Virus record (IMG/VR): IMGVR_UViG_3300024265_000187
Span: 1 to 26,226 of that record
DNA from: a virus
Lineage: Duplodnaviria > Caudoviricetes
Strand: one strand, 5' to 3'
Length of the DNA stretch: 26,226 bases
The notes below the pieces were generated by a model. That model did not search any database and was not told the DNA's origin. It was given only the letters and a program-made list of their open reading frames with translations. Of the stretch, positions 1,796-22,095 are shown one piece after another; the stretch's first letter is position 1, and each line of letters begins with the position of its first letter. The position numbers and the translations under genes were made by a program.

Positions 1796-2202
1796 GCCAA
1801 CGCAAGTCAGTCACATTCAGAGACTCGAACATGGGGGAGTGCGACATAGTAGCGTTCGCAATCCACCTGTCGGAAGTTTTTGGAACAACGCAACGAGGGA
1901 TCGCAGCAATAGTGCGGCTAACAAAACCGTACAGCGAATGGAGGCGCAGAGTAGAATGGTGTCAACACTGTCAACGATACGTGCCCGTACAGTTCATGGA
2001 CACAACGGCGATCGACGAACACGCAGCCCGCCGAATAAAGTTCAAGGATCATCCAGACAGAGACGATCCTAGAGAAGCATGCAGAGGAAGTAACACCGAC
2101 TCCGTGTGGAACGGGGCAGTACCACAACAATGCGAGCTAGCGCCCGACGCACTCGTGAGACTCCTGTCAACCGCAGGACTAGCTGGAGGACAATGCGCAT
2201 GA
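1792..2202 (+). CDS. Hypothetical protein with CxxC (possible Zn binding)
   Basis: ATGA overlaps with both neighbours; WCQHC plus two further Cys; same codon style as the arm. Confidence 0.7.
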   Translation: MSQRKSVTFRDSNMGECDIVAFAIHLSEVFGTTQRGIAAIVRLTKPYSEWRRRVEWCQHCQRYVPVQFMDTTAIDEHAARRIKFKDHPDRDDPREACRGSNTDSVWNGAVPQQCELAPDALVRLLSTAGLAGGQCA

Positions 2203-2966
2203 AGCCAATTGGATTAGCGTTCGACATCGAAACGGCGATAGACCCGCACGCAGCACTACCAGAAGCAACGATCAAGCCCGGCAATACCAAAGACCCGGGG
2301 AAGCTGGCAATCAAACAAGACGAGGCCAACGAAGCCTTGATACGAAAAGCAGCACTCGACCCACACTTCTCGCGAGTGGTTGCAATTGGATACCTGTTAA
2401 AACCAGACAGCGACGATGACACTGAACAACACTACGTTGACGTGATCAACACCCCGGACGATTACCTGTTCGGACTGGACGGAGATGCAGCAGACCACAA
2501 AGAAGACCTGGACAAGCGAGAACTTGCACTGATCATCGACCTGTGGGCAACAATAACACGCACGATCGACACAGACAGAAGGTTCGCGACGTTCAACGGT
2601 ACAGGGTTCGATCTCAAATTCCTGTACCGCAGGTCCCTGATACTCGGACTACCGGTGCCGGAACGAGTAATGGATCGAACATACCATGTAGACGCACTGT
2701 TGGCACTGACCGAATCAGAGCCGGGAACCGGTAGAGGGATCATGTTCCAAGCACCAACACCAACACCGCGCAACCTGAGATTCTACTCCGCAACCCTGCT
2801 GAACCCGGACCCGCACGCGGGACTCGTTGACATCGACAAGTCACAAAACGCAACGGCCATAGGAATACCAGAACGAAGACAAGAGCTGGTAGACGACACG
2901 AACGCGGCAACGCTTGCAACATACCTGCTTGCCAACAAATGCGTGACAATCCTCGGCACCGCATAG
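2199..2966 (+). CDS. DnaQ/PolB-type 3'-5' exonuclease-fold protein (ExoIII motif degenerate)
   Basis: ExoI LAFDIET, ExoII TFNGTGFDLKFL; start moved to ATG 2199 (GGAGG at 2185-2189, ATGA overlap). Confidence 0.8.
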   Translation: MKPIGLAFDIETAIDPHAALPEATIKPGNTKDPGKLAIKQDEANEALIRKAALDPHFSRVVAIGYLLKPDSDDDTEQHYVDVINTPDDYLFGLDGDAADHKEDLDKRELALIIDLWATITRTIDTDRRFATFNGTGFDLKFLYRRSLILGLPVPERVMDRTYHVDALLALTESEPGTGRGIMFQAPTPTPRNLRFYSATLLNPDPHAGLVDIDKSQNATAIGIPERRQELVDDTNAATLATYLLANKCVTILGTA

Positions 2967-2990: not shown

Positions 2991-4154
2991 ATGGAAACGA
3001 ACGAAGACACAATACCAACGGAGGCCACAGAAGCAACGGAAGCAGAATCTACACTAGTGCCATCCAACTCGATGATCGACCGGCTAATGAGAATAGCAAA
3101 CGCAGTAGCAGAGAGCGGATCGGCACTGCCAAAAGGGTGCAGAAATGCAGCGGGCGTATTCCGCAAAATGTTGACAGGCGTCGAGCTTGGACTGCCACCA
3201 ATGACATCGCTCAACGAACTGGACAGCATAAACGGAAGAGAAACGCTAAGCGCACGAATGAAGGTTGCAATAATACGCAAGCGGAAAATCGGCAAGATCG
3301 AAGTTGTAGAAACTACGGCAGAGAGTGCGACTGTAGCGGTCTCGAAAGCGTGCTGGCCTGATGACCGCCAAGAACAAATTACCTTCACGATGGACGACGC
3401 CCGAACGGCGAAGATATCGGAGAAAGACAACTGGAAACACTGGCCAAAGGCGATGCTATTGAGCAAGGCATTGTCAATCGCGTGCGCGACACACTTCCAA
3501 GAAGTCTTCGAGGGAGTTGGATACACGGCAGACGACTTGGGGGCAGAAACAGACGAGGAAGGCCGAGTCCTTGAAAGGTTAGAACCAACCACGGCAGAGA
3601 CTCCACCGTGGCGAAAAAAAGCCGAGGACGAAACGGTGGAAAAGGAACAACCACCACAAGGCAAGGCCAAGCCTACGCAGGAACCACCAGCACTGCCAAA
3701 AGCTGCACAGAAACCAGCCACATCGGACGTGCCGCCCGCTGCCGCCACCGCAGGTGAATCGAACTATCAGCCACACGACACATCACCAGGCGGAATGAAA
3801 AGGGCAGTCAAAGAAGTTGGCCTTACGGCTGACCAATGGAGGGAATCATTAGCAAACCACTTCAACGGCGCGAAGAAATTGGCAGACCTGACCTTGGTAG
3901 ACGCCGAACGATGCGCAATCTGGCTGAGACGGCTCAAGCAAATCACGCTGATGAGAGAGGACGCGGGGTACGGTGCAGCACAATGGGCGTCGGTGCTGGC
4001 CAAGCGCCAAGTGGACCATGAGCACCAACTGTCACTAGATCAGGTTCACGAAATCTGGAGTAAGCTGTTCGAGAACACGACTCCTTTTAGACGAGGCAAG
4101 CTGGGGATTACGGAAGAGAACGCAAAACCAGACGGTGCAGACACGGGAAAATAA
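2991..4154 (+). CDS. RecT-like single-strand annealing protein (phage recombinase) with C-terminal extension
   Basis: TGVELGLPPMTSLNELDSINGR, FTMDDARTA, KDNWKHWPKAML and GVGYTADDLG match the phage RecT-like pattern; Pro/Ala linker follows; SD AGAAAGGA. Confidence 0.75.
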   Translation: METNEDTIPTEATEATEAESTLVPSNSMIDRLMRIANAVAESGSALPKGCRNAAGVFRKMLTGVELGLPPMTSLNELDSINGRETLSARMKVAIIRKRKIGKIEVVETTAESATVAVSKACWPDDRQEQITFTMDDARTAKISEKDNWKHWPKAMLLSKALSIACATHFQEVFEGVGYTADDLGAETDEEGRVLERLEPTTAETPPWRKKAEDETVEKEQPPQGKAKPTQEPPALPKAAQKPATSDVPPAAATAGESNYQPHDTSPGGMKRAVKEVGLTADQWRESLANHFNGAKKLADLTLVDAERCAIWLRRLKQITLMREDAGYGAAQWASVLAKRQVDHEHQLSLDQVHEIWSKLFENTTPFRRGKLGITEENAKPDGADTGK

Positions 4155-4330
4155 AGCCCCCCAAGTGGACCACCGCACCCCACGGTGGCGCCAGATCAAT
4201 CGGGGGGATAATCGAAGACATGGTAATACGACACGGTGAGCAGTTGGGAATCAGCATACTAGGATACCCAACATCATGGTGTTTAACTCGAGGCGAGTTG
4301 GATAGACTATTGCAGGGAATGGGAATCTGA
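4145..4330 (+). other. Candidate -1 programmed frameshift site and 59-codon extension of the RecT-like protein
   Basis: In-frame G_GGA_AAA (4145-4151) directly before TAA; stem-loop 4157-4207; -1 frame open to TGA 4328-4330. Confidence 0.65.
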
Positions 4331-4344
4331 AAAGGAGAGCAACA

Positions 4345-4920
4345 ATGCCAGAAGAAGGATTCGGACCACAAGACTCAGGTGATTATAACTTTGGAGCAAC
4401 AGCACCCCCGGAAGGATTTGATCCAAACACATCAGCACCAAAGAGACCAGACGCCGGTGAACACACGATGACAATCACGACGTTCACCATGCACCCGGAC
4501 CACACGTTCAAGTGGAAAGGGGAGTCGTATGCACTTACGCAACTACGCCCAACGCTCGTTGTCACATCACCCGGCAGCAACGAAGGCAGAGAGTGCATCG
4601 ACTTTTTGCCAATGCCAACCGAAGGGAGGGAAATGGGCCTGCTTGCAAATCGATGGGCAAATCTCCTGAAGGGGTTCGGCTTCAACGTAACAAAAGACTC
4701 GCTAGTGCCGGTAGGCTTCAAGCTAACCGACCTCATAGGAAGATCAGCAAACGTCACAATTCAAGAAGAAACAGACTCCGACAACCAACCCAAGAAGTAC
4801 CGAGGCGTCGTGCAGACAGGAGTCGCATTGTTTGGATACAGCCCGGTGGACGAAGCAACGAAAGGACCGGACGCAACGCCAACGGCGGCCGAGGGCAAAC
4901 CTAAGCCCTTTGACCTGTAA
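4345..4920 (+). CDS. Probable OB-fold ssDNA-binding protein (DUF669-like)
   Basis: PDAGEHTMTIT near the N-terminus, DLIGRSANVTI, flexible tail ending PFDL; sits next to the recombinase; SD AAGGAG. Confidence 0.6.
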   Translation: MPEEGFGPQDSGDYNFGATAPPEGFDPNTSAPKRPDAGEHTMTITTFTMHPDHTFKWKGESYALTQLRPTLVVTSPGSNEGRECIDFLPMPTEGREMGLLANRWANLLKGFGFNVTKDSLVPVGFKLTDLIGRSANVTIQEETDSDNQPKKYRGVVQTGVALFGYSPVDEATKGPDATPTAAEGKPKPFDL

Positions 4921-4938
4921 CCGGCCTAGAGACGAAAC

Positions 4939-4975
4939 GGGTGGGCGACACGAACAGCATGCCAGTCGCCCACCC
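4939..4975. repeat. Perfect 11 bp inverted repeat (intergenic hairpin)
   Basis: GGGTGGGCGAC (4939-4949) / GTCGCCCACCC (4965-4975), 15 nt loop; no U-tract on +. Confidence 0.8.
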
Positions 4976-5003
4976 AACAGGCACGCGCAGAAAGGACGCC
5001 CGA

Positions 5004-7268
5004 ATGAACACGACGCTGTTCGACACAGCACAAAACGAAGTAACAACGCGACTGATACTGGACCGAATCGTATTCAACGAGAACGGACGGATCATCGCAA
5101 AGGCGCACATCCAAGCAACGTATCCACTGAAATCAGAAGCAGGAAAACCCGTAACCCACGTATCAATCCTTGGAGCAATGCCGAACGCATCGGCTGGCCA
5201 AGAGTACGAAGTAACCGGGAAACTGGAATACGATACCAAATGGCACCAATGGCAAATCAAATTCTCGACGCACAGAACAATCCTACCCAACGATGAAGAC
5301 TCCATTCTCAGATACCTGATCGACGTTGCGCGATGGGTAGGTCCGGATATAGCCGCAAAGCTGGTAAAGGCATTCGGAAACCACACGCTGACCACAATCA
5401 AAACCGATCCCGAGCACGTCGCAGAAACCATACCAGGAATAACGCTCACACGAGCGAAAGAGATGCAGTCAACGCTTGTAGAAAATGAAAAGTCAGAGCA
5501 AGCGATGATCGAGATCAACACGATGATCGGTGGAGTGCTACCGCCTTCAATAACACGAAAAGCTATCTCCACATGGGGATCGGATGCAGCGTTAAAAATA
5601 AAAGACAACCCATTCATTCTAACCAGCCTCCCGGGCGTTGGGTTCATAATGGCGGACGCCATACACCGAAGAATGAAAGGCGCGGAGGACGATCAAAATC
5701 GACACAAATCCGCAATAGTTCACGTACTACAAGAGGCAGCACAGAACGATGGACACACGGTAATAACCACCAACCAAGCAGTGTTGAAAGCAAACATCCT
5801 CACGGGCGGGCTGCGAACAGACTCCATAGCAACGGCCGAAAAAAACGGACACATCAGAACAAGCGACATGGCAAGCGACATGAGCCTAGAAGACTTGGTT
5901 GCCGCCGAAGAGTACGTTGCAGGGAAAATATCAACCATGCTGTCGGAGGAAATGCCACCGACAAGAATAGAAACGACAGACACGACACTGAACAACGAAC
6001 AACGAGCAGCATTCCACGGAATCCAAAACAGCAACGTCTTCATCCTGACAGGAGCACCGGGAACCGGGAAAACATATACGCTAGCAAGAATTGTGAAGGC
6101 GCTTAGAGACACGAACGCCTCAACAGTGCTGGTGGCACCAACCGGAAAAGCAGCAAAGCAGATGGAACTAGCACTCCAAGATACGTGCCCGACAACAGCC
6201 ACAACGATCCATTCGGCACTCGGCCCAACCATCGATGAAGACGGGAACTTCTGCTTTGATCGAGATGAACACGACCCCATCCCCGCGGACGTGATAATTG
6301 CCGACGAATTCAGCATGGTTGACGTTAGGCTCGCAAGAAGTCTACTGAAGGCCATAAGCCCGACGACGAAACTAATCATCGTAGGGGATCACTACCAGCT
6401 ACCGTCTATAGGCCCGGGCGCCGTACTCCGAGACCTGATTGCGGCCAAAGTGCCATGCCACGAACTGTCAAAAATACAACGCAACGCGGGGCTGATCGTG
6501 AAAGCATGCCACGCGATCAAGGCAGGAAAAATCGTGCAACCGGCCGAAAAACTAGATGCCGACGCTGGACAAAACTGGCGACACATCGAAACGGAAAGCA
6601 CGGCACAAACCAAGCAGGTGATAGAAGCACTGCTGCGAGACAAGCTGCCGGGAATGGGCATCGACACATTATGGAACGTACAACTGATCAGCCCAACAAA
6701 CGAGAAGGGAGAACTATCGTGCCAACAACTGAACAAGCTAGCGAAGCAAATCATCAACCCAACACCACCACCATTCCCTCGAATCCCGTTCGCACACGGA
6801 GACAAGGTAGTCCGACTAAGAAATGGCACCGCGAAAAGCGCCCGTGGCGCAGTCGCGGTGCGAGGTATCACTCGGAGAGAAACGGGAGCAACGGCAAAAG
6901 AAGACGTAAGAATAGTAAACGGTGACGTCGGAATCGTTCACGACATCGACGACAAGCACGTCATCGTAGAATTCAGATACCCGGATCGAAAAGTAGAAAT
7001 CAAAAAGGGCGACCACAAGCTGAAAATGGCATACGCAATGACCGGCCACAAGATGCAAGGAAGCGAAGTGCCGATCGTAGTCCTTCCACTGCACAAATCG
7101 TACTCGCGCATGCCGATGGTAAACCGCGAATGGTTGTACACGGCAATGAGCCGAGCGAAGCAAGCACTGATAACGGTTGGTGACCTCGGCGTAATGCGAC
7201 CGATCATTTCAAAAGTCGGAATGCAGGCGAGGCAGACGACACTAGCGTCCAAGGTGAAACTGCAATGA
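5004..7268 (+). CDS. recD2: RecD2-like SF1B DNA helicase
   Basis: N-terminal OB-like region, HhH motifs (WVGPDIA, IPGITLTRA, LPGVGFIMAD), Walker A GAPGTGKT, APTGKAA, DEFSMVD, VGDHYQLPSIGPG, AYAMTGHKMQGSE, LYTAMSRAK; start at ATG 5004 after AGAAAGGA. Confidence 0.92.
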   Translation: MNTTLFDTAQNEVTTRLILDRIVFNENGRIIAKAHIQATYPLKSEAGKPVTHVSILGAMPNASAGQEYEVTGKLEYDTKWHQWQIKFSTHRTILPNDEDSILRYLIDVARWVGPDIAAKLVKAFGNHTLTTIKTDPEHVAETIPGITLTRAKEMQSTLVENEKSEQAMIEINTMIGGVLPPSITRKAISTWGSDAALKIKDNPFILTSLPGVGFIMADAIHRRMKGAEDDQNRHKSAIVHVLQEAAQNDGHTVITTNQAVLKANILTGGLRTDSIATAEKNGHIRTSDMASDMSLEDLVAAEEYVAGKISTMLSEEMPPTRIETTDTTLNNEQRAAFHGIQNSNVFILTGAPGTGKTYTLARIVKALRDTNASTVLVAPTGKAAKQMELALQDTCPTTATTIHSALGPTIDEDGNFCFDRDEHDPIPADVIIADEFSMVDVRLARSLLKAISPTTKLIIVGDHYQLPSIGPGAVLRDLIAAKVPCHELSKIQRNAGLIVKACHAIKAGKIVQPAEKLDADAGQNWRHIETESTAQTKQVIEALLRDKLPGMGIDTLWNVQLISPTNEKGELSCQQLNKLAKQIINPTPPPFPRIPFAHGDKVVRLRNGTAKSARGAVAVRGITRRETGATAKEDVRIVNGDVGIVHDIDDKHVIVEFRYPDRKVEIKKGDHKLKMAYAMTGHKMQGSEVPIVVLPLHKSYSRMPMVNREWLYTAMSRAKQALITVGDLGVMRPIISKVGMQARQTTLASKVKLQ

Positions 7269-13886: not shown

Positions 13887-14377
13887 CAGACGTCGGAGTA
13901 TTGAAACTTCAATCCAAACAAGAGCGCGGCCGCAGCCATCGTGTCGGTAACACTGTCACGGAAAATTTCTGCATTTACAAGATCGCCAGCTTCATAATCA
14001 CCGGCAGTAAGAGTAATGCTGTGCGATTGAAGTAAAAACGCTGTACCGCTCTTCGTCTCAGTTCCCGTTTCCGTCGTTCTGGTTGCAGCACCACCAACAT
14101 CTTCGCCATCTTCGAGGGAAAGCAGGCTCCAATCCCAAGTCAAAGTTCCAGTAGTTGCGTCAGCAGTCCACTTGGGAATCAGCACTGGGCTACCAACGTA
14201 GTTATCAGGCACGAAGAAAGACAACCGGGCTCCGTCTTTTGTTCCGGAGTTAGTGAAAACGAGAATCTGCGGATCAATGACGGCGCCGGAATCTGAAATG
14301 CTGTACGGTTGCCAGTAAACTTTTCCAGAAGAATCAGGAATAGCGTTTCCAAGGATAGGGATTGATCTAGTTGCCAT
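13886..14377 (-). CDS. Putative virion protein (beta-sandwich)
   Basis: Beta-rich (FFVPDNY, AGDLVNAEIFRD, LFGLKFQY); TGATG coupling. Confidence 0.75.
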   Translation of the reverse strand: MATRSIPILGNAIPDSSGKVYWQPYSISDSGAVIDPQILVFTNSGTKDGARLSFFVPDNYVGSPVLIPKWTADATTGTLTWDWSLLSLEDGEDVGGAATRTTETGTETKSGTAFLLQSHSITLTAGDYEAGDLVNAEIFRDSVTDTMAAAALLFGLKFQYSDV

Positions 14378-14646
14378 CAGATGCCACCCCTTGTCACTTT
14401 GGTCTCAAGGAACCCGGTGATGATAGCGGTTTTGGCCGCATCACTGAATACGCCAGGAGCCACCCTCTCTATGGCATCACGAAATCGTGACGCAATGGCA
14501 TCCCACTCGTCTTCGCATGATTGAATGGCGACTGCCGACTGACTCTTGTCCCACGTAACAGACATTCGAGAAGCCTTCGACGGACCACCTCCATCACTTA
14601 CGCGGCGCTCAATCGCACGCAGCTCTTCGCTTATCATTTGAACCAT
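14377..14646 (-). CDS. Hypothetical protein
   Basis: 1 bp stop/start overlaps on both sides. Confidence 0.7.
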   Translation of the reverse strand: MVQMISEELRAIERRVSDGGGPSKASRMSVTWDKSQSAVAIQSCEDEWDAIASRFRDAIERVAPGVFSDAAKTAIITGFLETKVTRGGI

Positions 14647-15431
14647 TATTTTTCCACCAAATACGCATCGAAACCAGCAGCAACACGAACATTGATAGTA
14701 TCCGTCTGAACCTGTATTTTCACGATGAGTGGACCAGAAAAACCCTTCGGAACCATGTACTCATGATTCAATGGAGAGATGTCGGTAAAATACCTAACCT
14801 CTTTAGCGATGAATGCGGAATCAGGTTGTCCTGCGTTCTCTTTGACAAAAAGAAACCAATCTACTTTGACGGACACGGCGCCAGCAACCCTCAGGGCAGC
14901 AGCAGTAACATGCCGAATCCTAAATTCTTGTGTCGATGGAACACCATAAATTGCCATCATCGTTTGACCTTGTCCGGCAGCAATCATGGCAGTAATCGTT
15001 GCATCTATTTGCGCAGTTGCCGTGATAGTTCCTGCGCTAACGCCAAGAGAGCCAAAGGTGCGCCCGATCATCCGATGAATAATTACATAAGAGTTTGCAG
15101 TCGGAACGCTCGATGTACCATTGAGCACTACAACCTCGCCGACTTCTGGAGAGTCCCAATCGATTAATCCAAAAACCTCGACGGTTCGTATTCCAGGCCC
15201 TACCGGATCACCGTCATCGTCGGCACTGGATGAAGCAATATCATGCATTCTTGCCTGGGTAGGCGCAACCCAAACCTTCGTAGACGTAATGCCGTCGGCG
15301 CCATCCCATACGTCTGTATCTATGTTGGCGTCACAATCAGGCGCGCAACCGAACTTATTCAAAGTCAGGTAGCCAGTAGCACGACCAAGCGATGCCTCAA
15401 GCCCAAAATCTTTTGCCCCCAAAAAGGTCAT
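14646..15431 (-). CDS. Putative virion structural protein (beta-rich)
   Basis: LNKFG...DTDVWD, VEVFGL, EVVVLNGT and GQTMMAIYGVP resemble uncharacterised phage structural proteins; start at TAATG overlap 15431. Confidence 0.75.
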   Translation of the reverse strand: MTFLGAKDFGLEASLGRATGYLTLNKFGCAPDCDANIDTDVWDGADGITSTKVWVAPTQARMHDIASSSADDDGDPVGPGIRTVEVFGLIDWDSPEVGEVVVLNGTSSVPTANSYVIIHRMIGRTFGSLGVSAGTITATAQIDATITAMIAAGQGQTMMAIYGVPSTQEFRIRHVTAAALRVAGAVSVKVDWFLFVKENAGQPDSAFIAKEVRYFTDISPLNHEYMVPKGFSGPLIVKIQVQTDTINVRVAAGFDAYLVEK

Positions 15432-16333
15432 TACCAGATTTCCCAACTAGTATTATTGCTCAAAATTTCTATAGCTTCCTTGTCCGGCGAATCAACCAAA
15501 GTCACGGTGGACGCGCCTTCGATCAACTCGGAGCCAAACGGATCGACAGTTACATCGTTTCCCCCGGTTCCAACATTCTTGATCTTGAATCTCCGACCCT
15601 CGTTGCCCGTCGCCGTTGGTAGATTGACTGTAATAGCAACCAGGGTTGTGTCACACCTAACAGCATGATTGGACTTCGTCAACGTAACATCACCGGTAAC
15701 CGTAGTGATCTTCAAAACAGCCTCACCACCCGGAGCGGCATCGGTATTCATCCACACGCGCGTCTTGGGAGGATCAGCGGGCGGAGACGTTCCAACATGA
15801 ACATCGTCGTAGAAATCCGTAACGTCCGCACCATTGGTCTTGACCGATTGGCCATCCGTTCCATCGGCAATTGGAAGCGCAAACTCATTATGGATAATCA
15901 TCGCACCGTCGACATTGTGATCGACACGAAAAATCTCTACACCAGTAGTAAGATCACGCAAGAAAAACGCATCACCACCAGCGGAATTCTTGAACCCTAT
16001 CCGCCAACGATCAGGGAATCCCCCGGCGTCAAGAAAATTGATACCGGCTTCAGCATCAATAGTACGATGAAGACAGATCAAGGTAAAATCGGCGTTAATC
16101 GTAAGGGCACCGGTCAAAGTGCCACCAACAAGAGGAAGAAAAAGCGCAAACGTCGCACGCGCCTCATCTAGCGCCTCTCTCACGTTCTTGGGAAGAGAAG
16201 CCCAATCACCGGGAGTCGTTGGAATGTAAGGAATGCGAACAGCGCGAGCCCAATGGTCAAGATTGTCGACTATTAACCGTGGGGCGCCATCGAGCCCCAA
16301 CGGAGAAAGATTGTCTTGGATCAACAACGGCAT
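15431..16333 (-). CDS. Short tail fibre/spike-like protein
   Basis: NVREALDE and FLPLVGGTLTGAL fibre motifs, VGTSPP linker, C-terminal AITVNLPTA..GRRFKIK..IEG..W domain common at fibre tips; start at TAATG overlap 16333. Confidence 0.75.
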   Translation of the reverse strand: MPLLIQDNLSPLGLDGAPRLIVDNLDHWARAVRIPYIPTTPGDWASLPKNVREALDEARATFALFLPLVGGTLTGALTINADFTLICLHRTIDAEAGINFLDAGGFPDRWRIGFKNSAGGDAFFLRDLTTGVEIFRVDHNVDGAMIIHNEFALPIADGTDGQSVKTNGADVTDFYDDVHVGTSPPADPPKTRVWMNTDAAPGGEAVLKITTVTGDVTLTKSNHAVRCDTTLVAITVNLPTATGNEGRRFKIKNVGTGGNDVTVDPFGSELIEGASTVTLVDSPDKEAIEILSNNTSWEIW

Positions 16334-20551: not shown

Positions 20552-20887
20552 CTAGATTCCTTTCTTCTTTTTATTCTTGGGCTTGCTGTCCGTCTCTTCA
20601 ACTGCCGGTTCAGGCTCTTGGCCGTCGTCCTGCGGAGGCTCTTGGCCGTCGTCCTCAATTGCCGCGGGAAGCGGACCCCAACCATTCGCTTTCGCAACCT
20701 CTTCCCAATTGGCAGGGTGAACTTTAGCGCCCGCTAATTCCGCCTTTTGCCGAGTTGTATTAATCAACCCGGCAACGTAACAGTCGGCCTTCGGATCCCA
20801 CACGCAGAACCTTGCCGGATTTTTCGGCATAGGTACAACAATGCAACCGTTAGGCAACTTCTTGAAATTTCCGCCCGCTATTCCCAT
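20552..20887 (-). CDS. Hypothetical protein with acidic repeat and Lys-rich tail
   Basis: SD AGAAAGGA before ATG 20887; DDGQEP twice; KPKNKKKK. Confidence 0.7.
   Translation of the reverse strand: MGIAGGNFKKLPNGCIVVPMPKNPARFCVWDPKADCYVAGLINTTRQKAELAGAKVHPANWEEVAKANGWGPLPAAIEDDGQEPPQDDGQEPEPAVEETDSKPKNKKKKGI
20612..20655. repeat. 20 bp direct repeat, 24 bp period, in frame
   Basis: AGGCTCTTGGCCGTCGTCCT at 20612-20631 and 20636-20655. Confidence 0.9.
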
Positions 20888-21575
20888 AGCAATCTTCCTT
20901 TCTAACAATAGCCTCTTCGCAATCAGTTCCTTCGGACAACCCAACTATATGCTCACCTAAAAGGGGGTGGGTTGTCCAGCATCCACCAGAATTGATAGAC
21001 GCCCAATAACCATTTTCTCCAAAGCACGCAACAAGAGCATCTCTAACACTATCCTGATACGCATCGTGGCCAGCGAGGATCCCGGTTCGGCCCTTCCACG
21101 CGTTGATGTCGCTTATGACGGCTTCGGTCGTATGGTCTCCGTCGATAAAAACAAAGTCAGCACCACGAATAACCGGCACCGCACGAACGCTGTCCATACA
21201 CAGGATTTCAATGTGATCTTCCAAGTCGAAAGCCTTGATATTCTCCCCAAACACATCCAGCAGCGTGCGATTGGCCGCCAGCATCTCCTTGATCTGTAAG
21301 TTGTATTCATCTCCACCGTTGGTGCCATCCGCGAAGCTTATCTCAAACGTGTCAACGGCGTAAAGCTCGAAGTTGCAGCCCATACGATCCAGGAGTTGCT
21401 TACAAAGATGGATGATGCTTGTGCCCTTCCAGACACCAACTTCTACGAGTACAGGAGCGGTGACAACAGAAGTGCTTCCAGTGCCAACGTCGCATTTCTT
21501 TTCGGCCTCCGAAAAGTGATCGGCAACCCAATCATAAACAGGCCGAAAATTGAACCAACCTCTAAGATCGATCAT
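20850..21575 (-). CDS. Class I SAM-dependent methyltransferase (Methyltransf_24-like)
   Basis: LVEVGVWKGTS, YAVDTF, FVFIDGDH, GILAGHD; start ATG 21575 after AAGAAGG. Confidence 0.85.
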   Translation of the reverse strand: MIDLRGWFNFRPVYDWVADHFSEAEKKCDVGTGSTSVVTAPVLVEVGVWKGTSIIHLCKQLLDRMGCNFELYAVDTFEISFADGTNGGDEYNLQIKEMLAANRTLLDVFGENIKAFDLEDHIEILCMDSVRAVPVIRGADFVFIDGDHTTEAVISDINAWKGRTGILAGHDAYQDSVRDALVACFGENGYWASINSGGCWTTHPLLGEHIVGLSEGTDCEEAIVRKEDCYGNSGRKFQEVA

Positions 21576-21600
21576 GGGAACCTTCTTAATGGGAACGAAG

Positions 21601-21640
21601 AAAAAAGGTGGATGGTGGCGTTCCCCAACCACCACCCACC
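21601..21640 (-). terminator. Intrinsic terminator after capsid and cement genes
   Basis: GGTGGGTGGTGG-N10-CCACCATCCACC-TTTTTT (12 bp stem, U6). Confidence 0.85.
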
Positions 21641-21660
21641 CCGAACACAAACCACCACCA

Positions 21661-22095
21661 CTAAGTTGCGTCGACCTCCGCCGTGCTCGCGTCAGACGAG
21701 TCTTCGGGGCCAAACATGATAAGCGTTGCACCGTAGAGCGCCGAGTTGGCATTCAAGTTGTCAATCGGCTTGAAATACCGTTTCAGCGCAGTCAGGTCGA
21801 AGTAAGCAAACGACGAAGTGTTGTCGTCGGCATTCACGAACGTCAGTAGCCGAGGATTGATGTCAGTCACCACAGGGGCAGGAACCGTTGCGAAATTGGC
21901 AGCGGCCTCATCCGATTGCTGAATATCGAAATTCAGAGTGACGTCATCGACAATACCCTTACTAATCACAAGAATGGCCTCGTTCCATCCTCGCGTGTCG
22001 ATCGCAGTGTTGTTCCCATCTGTCGAAGTCAGAAAATCCGTGGGCGGAATTATCTGCTGAACGCTAATGCGTCGATTGATGAGTCGTCCCATCAT
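21661..22095 (-). CDS. Capsid cement/decoration protein (jelly-roll, BPP-1 Bbp16-like)
   Basis: Directly after the capsid gene and before the terminator; AIDTRG, IQQSD and KRY motifs; SD AAGGAG. Confidence 0.65.
   Translation of the reverse strand: MMGRLINRRISVQQIIPPTDFLTSTDGNNTAIDTRGWNEAILVISKGIVDDVTLNFDIQQSDEAAANFATVPAPVVTDINPRLLTFVNADDNTSSFAYFDLTALKRYFKPIDNLNANSALYGATLIMFGPEDSSDASTAEVDAT

Follow-up and report, generated by a model that had tools for sequence, protein, structure and literature searches.

A predicted programmed -1 ribosomal frameshift near the stop codon of a RecT-type annealase gene from a phage

Does translation of a phage annealase gene always end at its stop codon, or do some of the ribosomes continue in the -1 frame and add a further domain to the protein? 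The question is raised by a 26,226-nucleotide stretch of viral DNA (the window), in which a RecT-type gene closes with a slippery heptamer and the -1 frame stays open up to the next gene. On the window sequence alone, the case for frameshifting is suggestive only. As the slip site, an RNA signal and the hidden frame recur in four distant relatives, a fraction of the ribosomes likely slips, and this sequence comparison makes a programmed -1 ribosomal frameshift at the end of the gene very probable. The mechanism is a known one in an unexpected class of gene.

The window is a stretch of the genome of a tailed phage. Its - strand carries the portal, capsid and head-tail genes, while a + strand operon encodes an AAA ATPase, an exonuclease-like protein, the RecT-like protein, a 191-aa protein, a RecD2 helicase, an ERCC4 nuclease and a D5-type primase. 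The features at the centre of this analysis are:

2991..4154, + strand: RecT/Red-beta family annealase gene, 387-aa zero-frame product (PHROG 4171, E 1.6e-18)
3066..3560, + strand: annealase core domain, residues ~26-190 (AF2 pLDDT mostly >86)
3786..4076, + strand: tandem pair of helical repeats, residues 266-362 (HHalign comparison of the two repeats and AF2 model)
4145..4151, + strand: slippery heptamer G_GGA_AAA, Gly386-Lys387 (from the sequence; counterparts in relatives L085-L088)
4152..4154, + strand: zero-frame stop TAA
4151..4330, + strand: -1 frame of 59 codons, linker and conserved domain of three predicted helices that carries a G-Y-P-x-S-W motif
4332..4920, + strand: SD and next gene, 191 aa, likely SSB-like, no family match

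The identification of the gene as a RecT/Red-beta annealase is based on a profile match and a predicted fold. Besides the match to PHROG 4171, ORF 2991-4154 matches Pfam RecT (PF03837) with an E of 0.0012, below the gathering cut-off, and tblastn with the ORF returned matches annotated as RecT-like. The top two PDB rows of a Foldseek search with the model were lambda Red-beta (7ujl, E 3.1e-3, probability 1.00) and Listeria RecT (7ub2, E 0.1, probability 0.94), both short of an E of 0.001. In the AF2 model the core (residues 26-190) is followed by a disordered linker and then by the helices of residues 266-362, which form two repeats (HHalign probability 93%, E 2.6e-7) that we take to be GemA/DUF1018-like. 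By sequence, and tentatively by predicted fold, the core domain resembles that of RecT/Red-beta annealases (PF03837, PHROG 4171), whereas the longer tail, with its two helical repeats and the predicted frameshift-encoded domain, is unlike other members of the family.

In agreement with the initial annotation, the heptamer G_GGA_AAA at the RecT stop is in phase with ORF 2991-4154, and its coordinates are right. In-phase GGGAAAN occurs only this once among the window's nine genes on the + strand (3,286 codons), and strict heptamers number 8 in the 7,858 codons of its 28 genes. Relatives for comparison came from a metagenome scan with an alignment of five proteins as query, which covered 47 of 64 parts and from which the best 80 of 391 confirmed loci were taken. 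Among these 80, four loci (L085-L088) stand apart. They have the gene order of the window in common, and their RecT proteins are 30-34% identical to that of the window; synonymous sites are saturated, with the same codon as the window at 28-38% of 4-fold sites. L085 and L086 are 95% identical, so that the four relatives represent three lineages. Searches of viral contigs with single proteins (RecT, the -1 peptide or the next gene) matched only the window's own contig. For a more distant comparison, 173 other RecT loci were examined, 17 of which run off their contigs, and 127 distinct gene ends were counted.

An in-phase site near the RecT stop is conserved in all of the relatives, as G_GGA_AAC in three and C_GGA_AAC in one. 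G_GGA_AAC is found 9, 9 and 1 codons ahead of the stop in L085, L086 and L088, respectively, while L087 has C_GGA_AAC 1 codon and C_GGA_AAG 6 codons ahead of it. From the heptamer to a conserved Met/Leu column of the -1 frame there are 18-19 codons in the relatives and 23 in the window. Of the 127 distant RecT ends, 1 has a G_GGA_AAN, 5 have an N_GGA_AAN, and 3 have a strict heptamer within their last 12 codons. Gly386 is encoded by GGA in four of four lineages, and of 15 invariant Gly/Pro columns only two keep a single codon (Gly386 GGA and Pro365 CCT), both at putative slip sites. Judged from codon usage and from the distant RecT ends, the heptamer is conserved beyond the constraint on the protein. 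Two further homologues, available as protein sequence only, have G-N or G-K near the C-terminus. An upstream SD-like stimulator is an optional element of such signals in bacteria; the candidate sequence is weak here (-3.3 kcal/mol in the window), as it is in three relatives, while that of L087 is strong but only 5 nt from the heptamer. One distant RecT gene (L067) has T_TTA_AAA at its end and is followed by an ATGA-coupled gene; this heptamer is likely due to chance, since the near-identical L058 and L061 carry none.

The hidden frame itself was described correctly at the outset. It is open from 4091 to 4327, continues for 59 codons past the slip site and ends with TGA at 4328-4330 directly before the SD of the next gene, and in the window it has no ATG, GTG or TTG ahead of 4220. 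Its codon score is 0.059, compared with a median of 0.23 for real genes and a mean of -0.16 for stop-free wrong frames. That the frame is coding, as had been supposed, is corroborated by the relatives: in all four, a homologue of the window peptide is encoded in the -1 frame past the RecT end (the L085 copy is cut by the contig end), with 32-38% identity and 12 invariant columns. A profile built from three relatives matches the window frame with an E of 2.9e-13 among 599 frames, and the match begins 16 residues before ATG 4220. In six of six pairwise comparisons the third codon positions differ most. On these comparisons the frame is under coding selection and has no start of its own, with the caveat of CTG or TTG codons in L085-L087.

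The AF2 model of the encoded domain consists of three helices with pLDDT >90, the first of which (residues 19-30) spans the Met of ATG 4220. A fold search gave a best Z of 2.8, too low to be informative. The peptide had no meaningful match in Pfam, PHROGs or PDB sequences and no significant match among longer proteins and cultured phages, and its ESM Atlas neighbours are unnamed clusters of 59-70 aa or AMP-binding fragments with low shared-feature counts. A profile search across 1.84 billion representatives identified 19 sequences homologous to the domain (P0065-P0083), all called as separate proteins of 37-70 aa; they constitute a nameless small-protein family with the G-Y-P-x-S-W motif. One cluster member of the family is labelled as a Phycisphaerae genome bin, the sole hint at a host. 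A natural in-frame fusion of RecT with the extra domain, which had been named as a possible find, does not occur among these 19. Six of them start with Met at one column, ten residues before the column of 4220, and 17 begin upstream of the 4220 column. The six shared Met starts suggest that other lineages have the domain as a free small gene, and the cassette may then represent an ancestral coupled small gene that was captured by frameshifting. The extra helical module anticipated in the initial annotation is upheld as a predicted three-helix domain; it forms a distinct family, however, and is not a clear third repeat of the RecT tail. The idea of a third repeat found no support: the HHalign probability was 0.7-4% and concerned the last helix only; a tail-module profile gave an E of 0.55 against the domain, with a pattern that was chosen after the peptide had been seen.

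Downstream of the heptamer, two competing structures can be drawn in the window:

4157..4207, + strand: C6/G6 stem-loop with inner hairpin, window-specific candidate stimulator (-24.0 kcal/mol)
4160..4248, + strand: alternative long-range helix 4160-4164 / 4244-4248, located where the relatives have their covarying helix

The geometry given earlier for the first of these is accurate: C6 at 4157-4162 pairs with G6 at 4202-4207 around an inner stem of 4170-4175 and 4183-4188, after a spacer of 5 nt. The C6/G6 stem ranks in the best 0.65% of 3,370 sampled 60-nt windows. Against shuffled sequences its z-score is -1.8 at 60 nt and -0.2 at 91-105 nt (-0.17 at 105 nt). In the longer fold its pair probability is 0.61, versus 0.37 for the five-pair helix homologous to that of the relatives, which is shifted in register by 1 nt; the fold with the latter helix has an energy of -29.1 kcal/mol, close to the -29.5 kcal/mol of the C6/G6 fold. 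Both place a helix 5-8 nt past the slip site (spacers of 5 and 8 nt).

In the relatives, the long folds give a hairpin of 75-80 nt that starts 7-8 nt after the heptamer and is branched in L085, L086 and L088, with z-scores of -1.7, -3.9 and -2.8 for the folds of the relatives. An 8-bp helix with a spacer of 7 nt is fully paired in all four, with four compensatory columns and pair probabilities of 0.81-1.0. With the heptamer as anchor for the 5' arm and the invariant Gly-Glu codons for the 3' arm, this was the sole helix of at least 5 bp among 1,980 offsets, and the longest helix in a background of 108,135 column pairs of the RecT alignment had 6 bp. The helix had first been spotted by eye, and the offset scan is therefore a check and no blind discovery. 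Folds of 60-nt windows and an automatic alignment fold gave no convincing common stem, as the covarying helix spans 75-80 nt. The supposed covariation of the stem thus holds in part: the relatives do share a covarying helix, but it is of longer range, and the C6/G6 stem is specific to the window. The published rule of a hairpin 4-10 nt downstream is satisfied by 25-36 of 40 random positions and carries no weight alone. A terminator in the gap was discarded, as a scan gave 8 sites against 7.6 expected and none on the + strand, and Rfam had no match to 3900-5100.

In place of a frameshift, the -1 frame could be a separate small gene, on which ribosomes initiate independently or re-initiate past the RecT stop, with the heptamer incidental or a relic. 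The proposed starts would be CTG or TTG in the relatives and, in the window, the following codon:

4220..4222, + strand: ATG inside predicted helix 1, no conserved start (CTC in L085, L086 and L088; ATG in L087)

This explanation, which we consider unlikely, draws on the 19 homologues called as free proteins of 37-70 aa, six of them with Met at one column, although these may also be frameshift frames that were given arbitrary starts. In the window, the G6 run is SD-like and lies 12 nt before ATG 4220; a start there, which the initial annotation itself had raised against frameshifting, would remove half of predicted helix 1, lies downstream of where 17 of the 19 homologues begin, and falls on a codon that is CTC in three relatives and never Met in the 19 further homologues. 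ATG 4220 as an independent start is thus not sustained. At or beside the column where the six homologues start, the window has GCC, L088 GTC, L085 and L086 GTC and then a CTG that overlaps the RecT stop, and L087 a TTG that lacks an SD. The CTG and TTG, like the ATG of L087 at the 4220 column, favour a separate gene, but L085, L086 and L088 contain no ATG, GTG or TTG ahead of the conserved block, and L088 no CTG there either. Other points weigh against frameshifting itself, namely the imperfect heptamer of L087 with a strong SD-like sequence only 5 nt upstream, the low efficiency of the G_GG.A_AA.C motif in E. coli, a comparison that counts just three independent lineages, and in the window a fold that lacks significance over 105 nt (z -0.17) and a homologous helix of only five pairs. 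A separate gene, in turn, leaves unexplained the phased heptamer and the covarying helix at a fixed spacing of 7 nt. Weak initiation of the small gene may occur in some relatives.

Transcriptional slippage would make the same fusion and would need a conserved run too. The A run here is 3-4 nt long, while slippage in dnaX needs runs of ~9 according to the account of it in PMC5009743, and the codon phase and the 7-nt spacer to the helix are ribosomal signatures; we regard this route as highly improbable. The same can be said of a single longer gene broken by mutation or assembly error, even though the two frames are collinear and could be one protein. All four divergent relatives have this -1 break at the corresponding position, which largely refutes this reading, and the searches gave no intact fused form. 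No indels were seen at the cassette in one contig examined (depth 14) or in one IMG/VR contig; both may be the source of this DNA and are hence not independent.

For the favoured reading, a programmed ribosomal frameshift, the mechanism would be as follows. Ribosomes at G_GGA_AAA would pause at the downstream RNA helix, and tRNA-Gly and tRNA-Lys (tRNA-Asn in the relatives) would slip in tandem, stimulated by the 3' helix. A minority would thereby move back one base, bypass the TAA and add the 59-residue extension with its predicted three-helix domain. The comparative evidence supports the two isoforms proposed originally, with likely products of 387 aa (major) and 446 aa (minor), and we infer that the two forms would co-assemble; the fixed ratio and mixed oligomers of the initial annotation are likewise conjectural. 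Data on motifs in E. coli suggest that the slip rate is probably low: in the sections of PMC4066793 on heptamer efficiency, G_GG.A_AA.C is of low efficiency and G_GG.A_AA.A is cited as inefficient in older work, while V_VV.A_AA.R and H_HH.U_UU.Y motifs are efficient.

A second site, shared by all five loci, may lie upstream:

4082..4090, + strand: T_CCT_TTT, candidate -1 site further upstream (Pro365-Phe366), followed by a -1 stop TAG at 4088-4090

In all four relatives C_CCT_TTT is immediately followed by a -1 frame TGA (L085 2042, L086 3457, L087 2431, L088 2494). CCT TTT is common to all five loci at the invariant Pro365-Phe366, on the border of the helical-repeat domain; the base 5' of it is C in the relatives but T in the window. 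Both are minor codons, and their joint identity across the four lineages would be expected with probabilities of 0.0007 and 0.006; within the last 45 codons, CCT TTT occurs in 0 of 127 distant RecT genes. As a counterpoint, Leu156 CTA is equally conserved and has no such explanation (ATG CTA, Met155-Leu156, at 3453-3458 in the window; this rare Leu codon is kept in all lineages). The -1 stop also follows partly from the Glu/Asp codons after Phe, and in the window the heptamer is imperfect and no qualifying hairpin lies downstream. That Y_CCT_TTT is a second -1 slip site, giving a 366-aa form, is therefore conceivable but somewhat doubtful. More tentative still is a scheme of two -1 sites in series, which would yield proteins of 366 (ending Pro-Phe), 387 and 446 aa and a filament of three variants at set ratios, with the small gene captured. 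Neither a terminator-like hairpin before the 4082 site (z -0.4 to +1.5) nor pairing of the site with the SD of the next gene, which varies between the relatives, gained support.

The closest parallel to the 4145 cassette is lambda gpG/gpGT, whose slip site is G_GGA_AAG. In lambda, and by prediction here, slipping close to the 3' end of the gene equips a minority of the subunits of an oligomer with an additional C-terminal domain. As outlined in the lambda section of PMC5009743, a low-level -1 slip there (30:1) adds the T domain, which bridges to a partner. The present gene is unlike gpG/gpGT in that it encodes an annealase in a replication-recombination operon, with no sequence relation seen, and in that its stimulator resembles a covarying, branched hairpin of 75-80 nt. 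Lying between exonuclease-like and SSB-like/RecD2 genes, it does not belong with the tail assembly chaperones; the cassette would work like the G/GT family but is not a member. The IS3/IS911 family uses G_GG.A_AA.C and G_GG.A_AA.A heptamers (passages in PMC4066793), and the three-way junction described for IS911 in part of PMC5009743 is matched by the branched predicted folds of L085, L086 and L088, whereas a transposase and a consistent upstream SD at stimulatory distance are absent here. The tau/gamma pair of dnaX likewise comprises two isoforms of a DNA-metabolism protein made by -1 frameshifting. Going by the dnaX portion of PMC5009743, E. coli dnaX, with its stop one codon past the slip, resembles the candidate 4082 site, and the reversed form, in which the zero-frame stop comes immediately past the slip, is similar to the 4145 site. 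Unlike the cassette, dnaX is a chromosomal clamp loader with an A_AAA_AAG motif and ~50% efficiency. Other phage frameshifts that alter C-termini, according to the phage examples in PMC5009743, are the capsid and tail extensions of T7, T3, A2 and A118 and the cro gene of A2; the former concern structural proteins, often Ig-like, and the latter shortens its protein.

A full-text literature search, at the level of listings and the openings of abstracts, gave no description of a RecT frameshift. In the portions of text covered, the term 'RecT' is absent from PMC5009743 and PMC10885494, 'frameshift' from the annealase review PMC11611040, and 'recombinase' and 'annealing' from PMC3711429; a RecT case may be listed in the cluster tables of GeneTack. 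Nearly all described phage frameshifts concern tail or capsid genes. If the prediction is true, phages also set the subunit stoichiometry of recombination machines by recoding, and such genes are mis-annotated as a truncated protein plus either a gap or a tiny hypothetical gene.

What the additional domain might do is suggested by analogy. In Red-beta, the domain at the C-terminus binds exonuclease and SSB, as stated in the relevant part of PMC11611040, and lambda gpGT bridges partners. By this comparison, the extra domain could be a sub-stoichiometric adaptor through which a few filament subunits dock a partner of the same replication-recombination operon, an idea to which we give slightly less than an even chance. 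The SSB-like, exonuclease-like or RecD2 protein would be our guess as to that partner. The case would also define a new small domain family, whose adaptor role is testable. RecT proteins serve as recombineering tools and bind their partners under the control of their C-terminal domains, so that a C-terminus that can be switched is directly of interest.

Several minor observations concern the surrounding genes. The 191-aa gene holds the same place in L086-L088, with 37-40% identity and an acidic tail in the relatives, and is followed by a GC-rich hairpin (4938-4975 in the window, ~4350-4410 in L086, ~3370-3430 in L088) that has a T-rich tail in L086 and L088 and is terminator-like. Unrelated small ORFs are inserted 5' of RecD2 in the relatives. 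In the DnaQ-like exonuclease (window 2199-2966) the motif D-I-E-T reads N-I-E-T in the four relatives; with Asn in place of the first catalytic-type Asp, the enzyme may be inactive in L085-L088. In the tail region, the gene at 14646-15446 (- strand) contains an in-phase G_GGT_TTT 30 codons ahead of its stop, and the -1 frame there runs for 120 codons without a stop, across the next ORF (14377-14646). A structural-gene frameshift is possible at this site, but ORF 14377-14646 has its own coupled ATG. A methyltransferase (PF13578) is encoded at 20850-21752 (- strand) within the head gene module, and of the 60-nt folds in the early operon the most stable one (-30 kcal/mol) lies inside the RecD2 gene, at 6803-6890 (+ strand).
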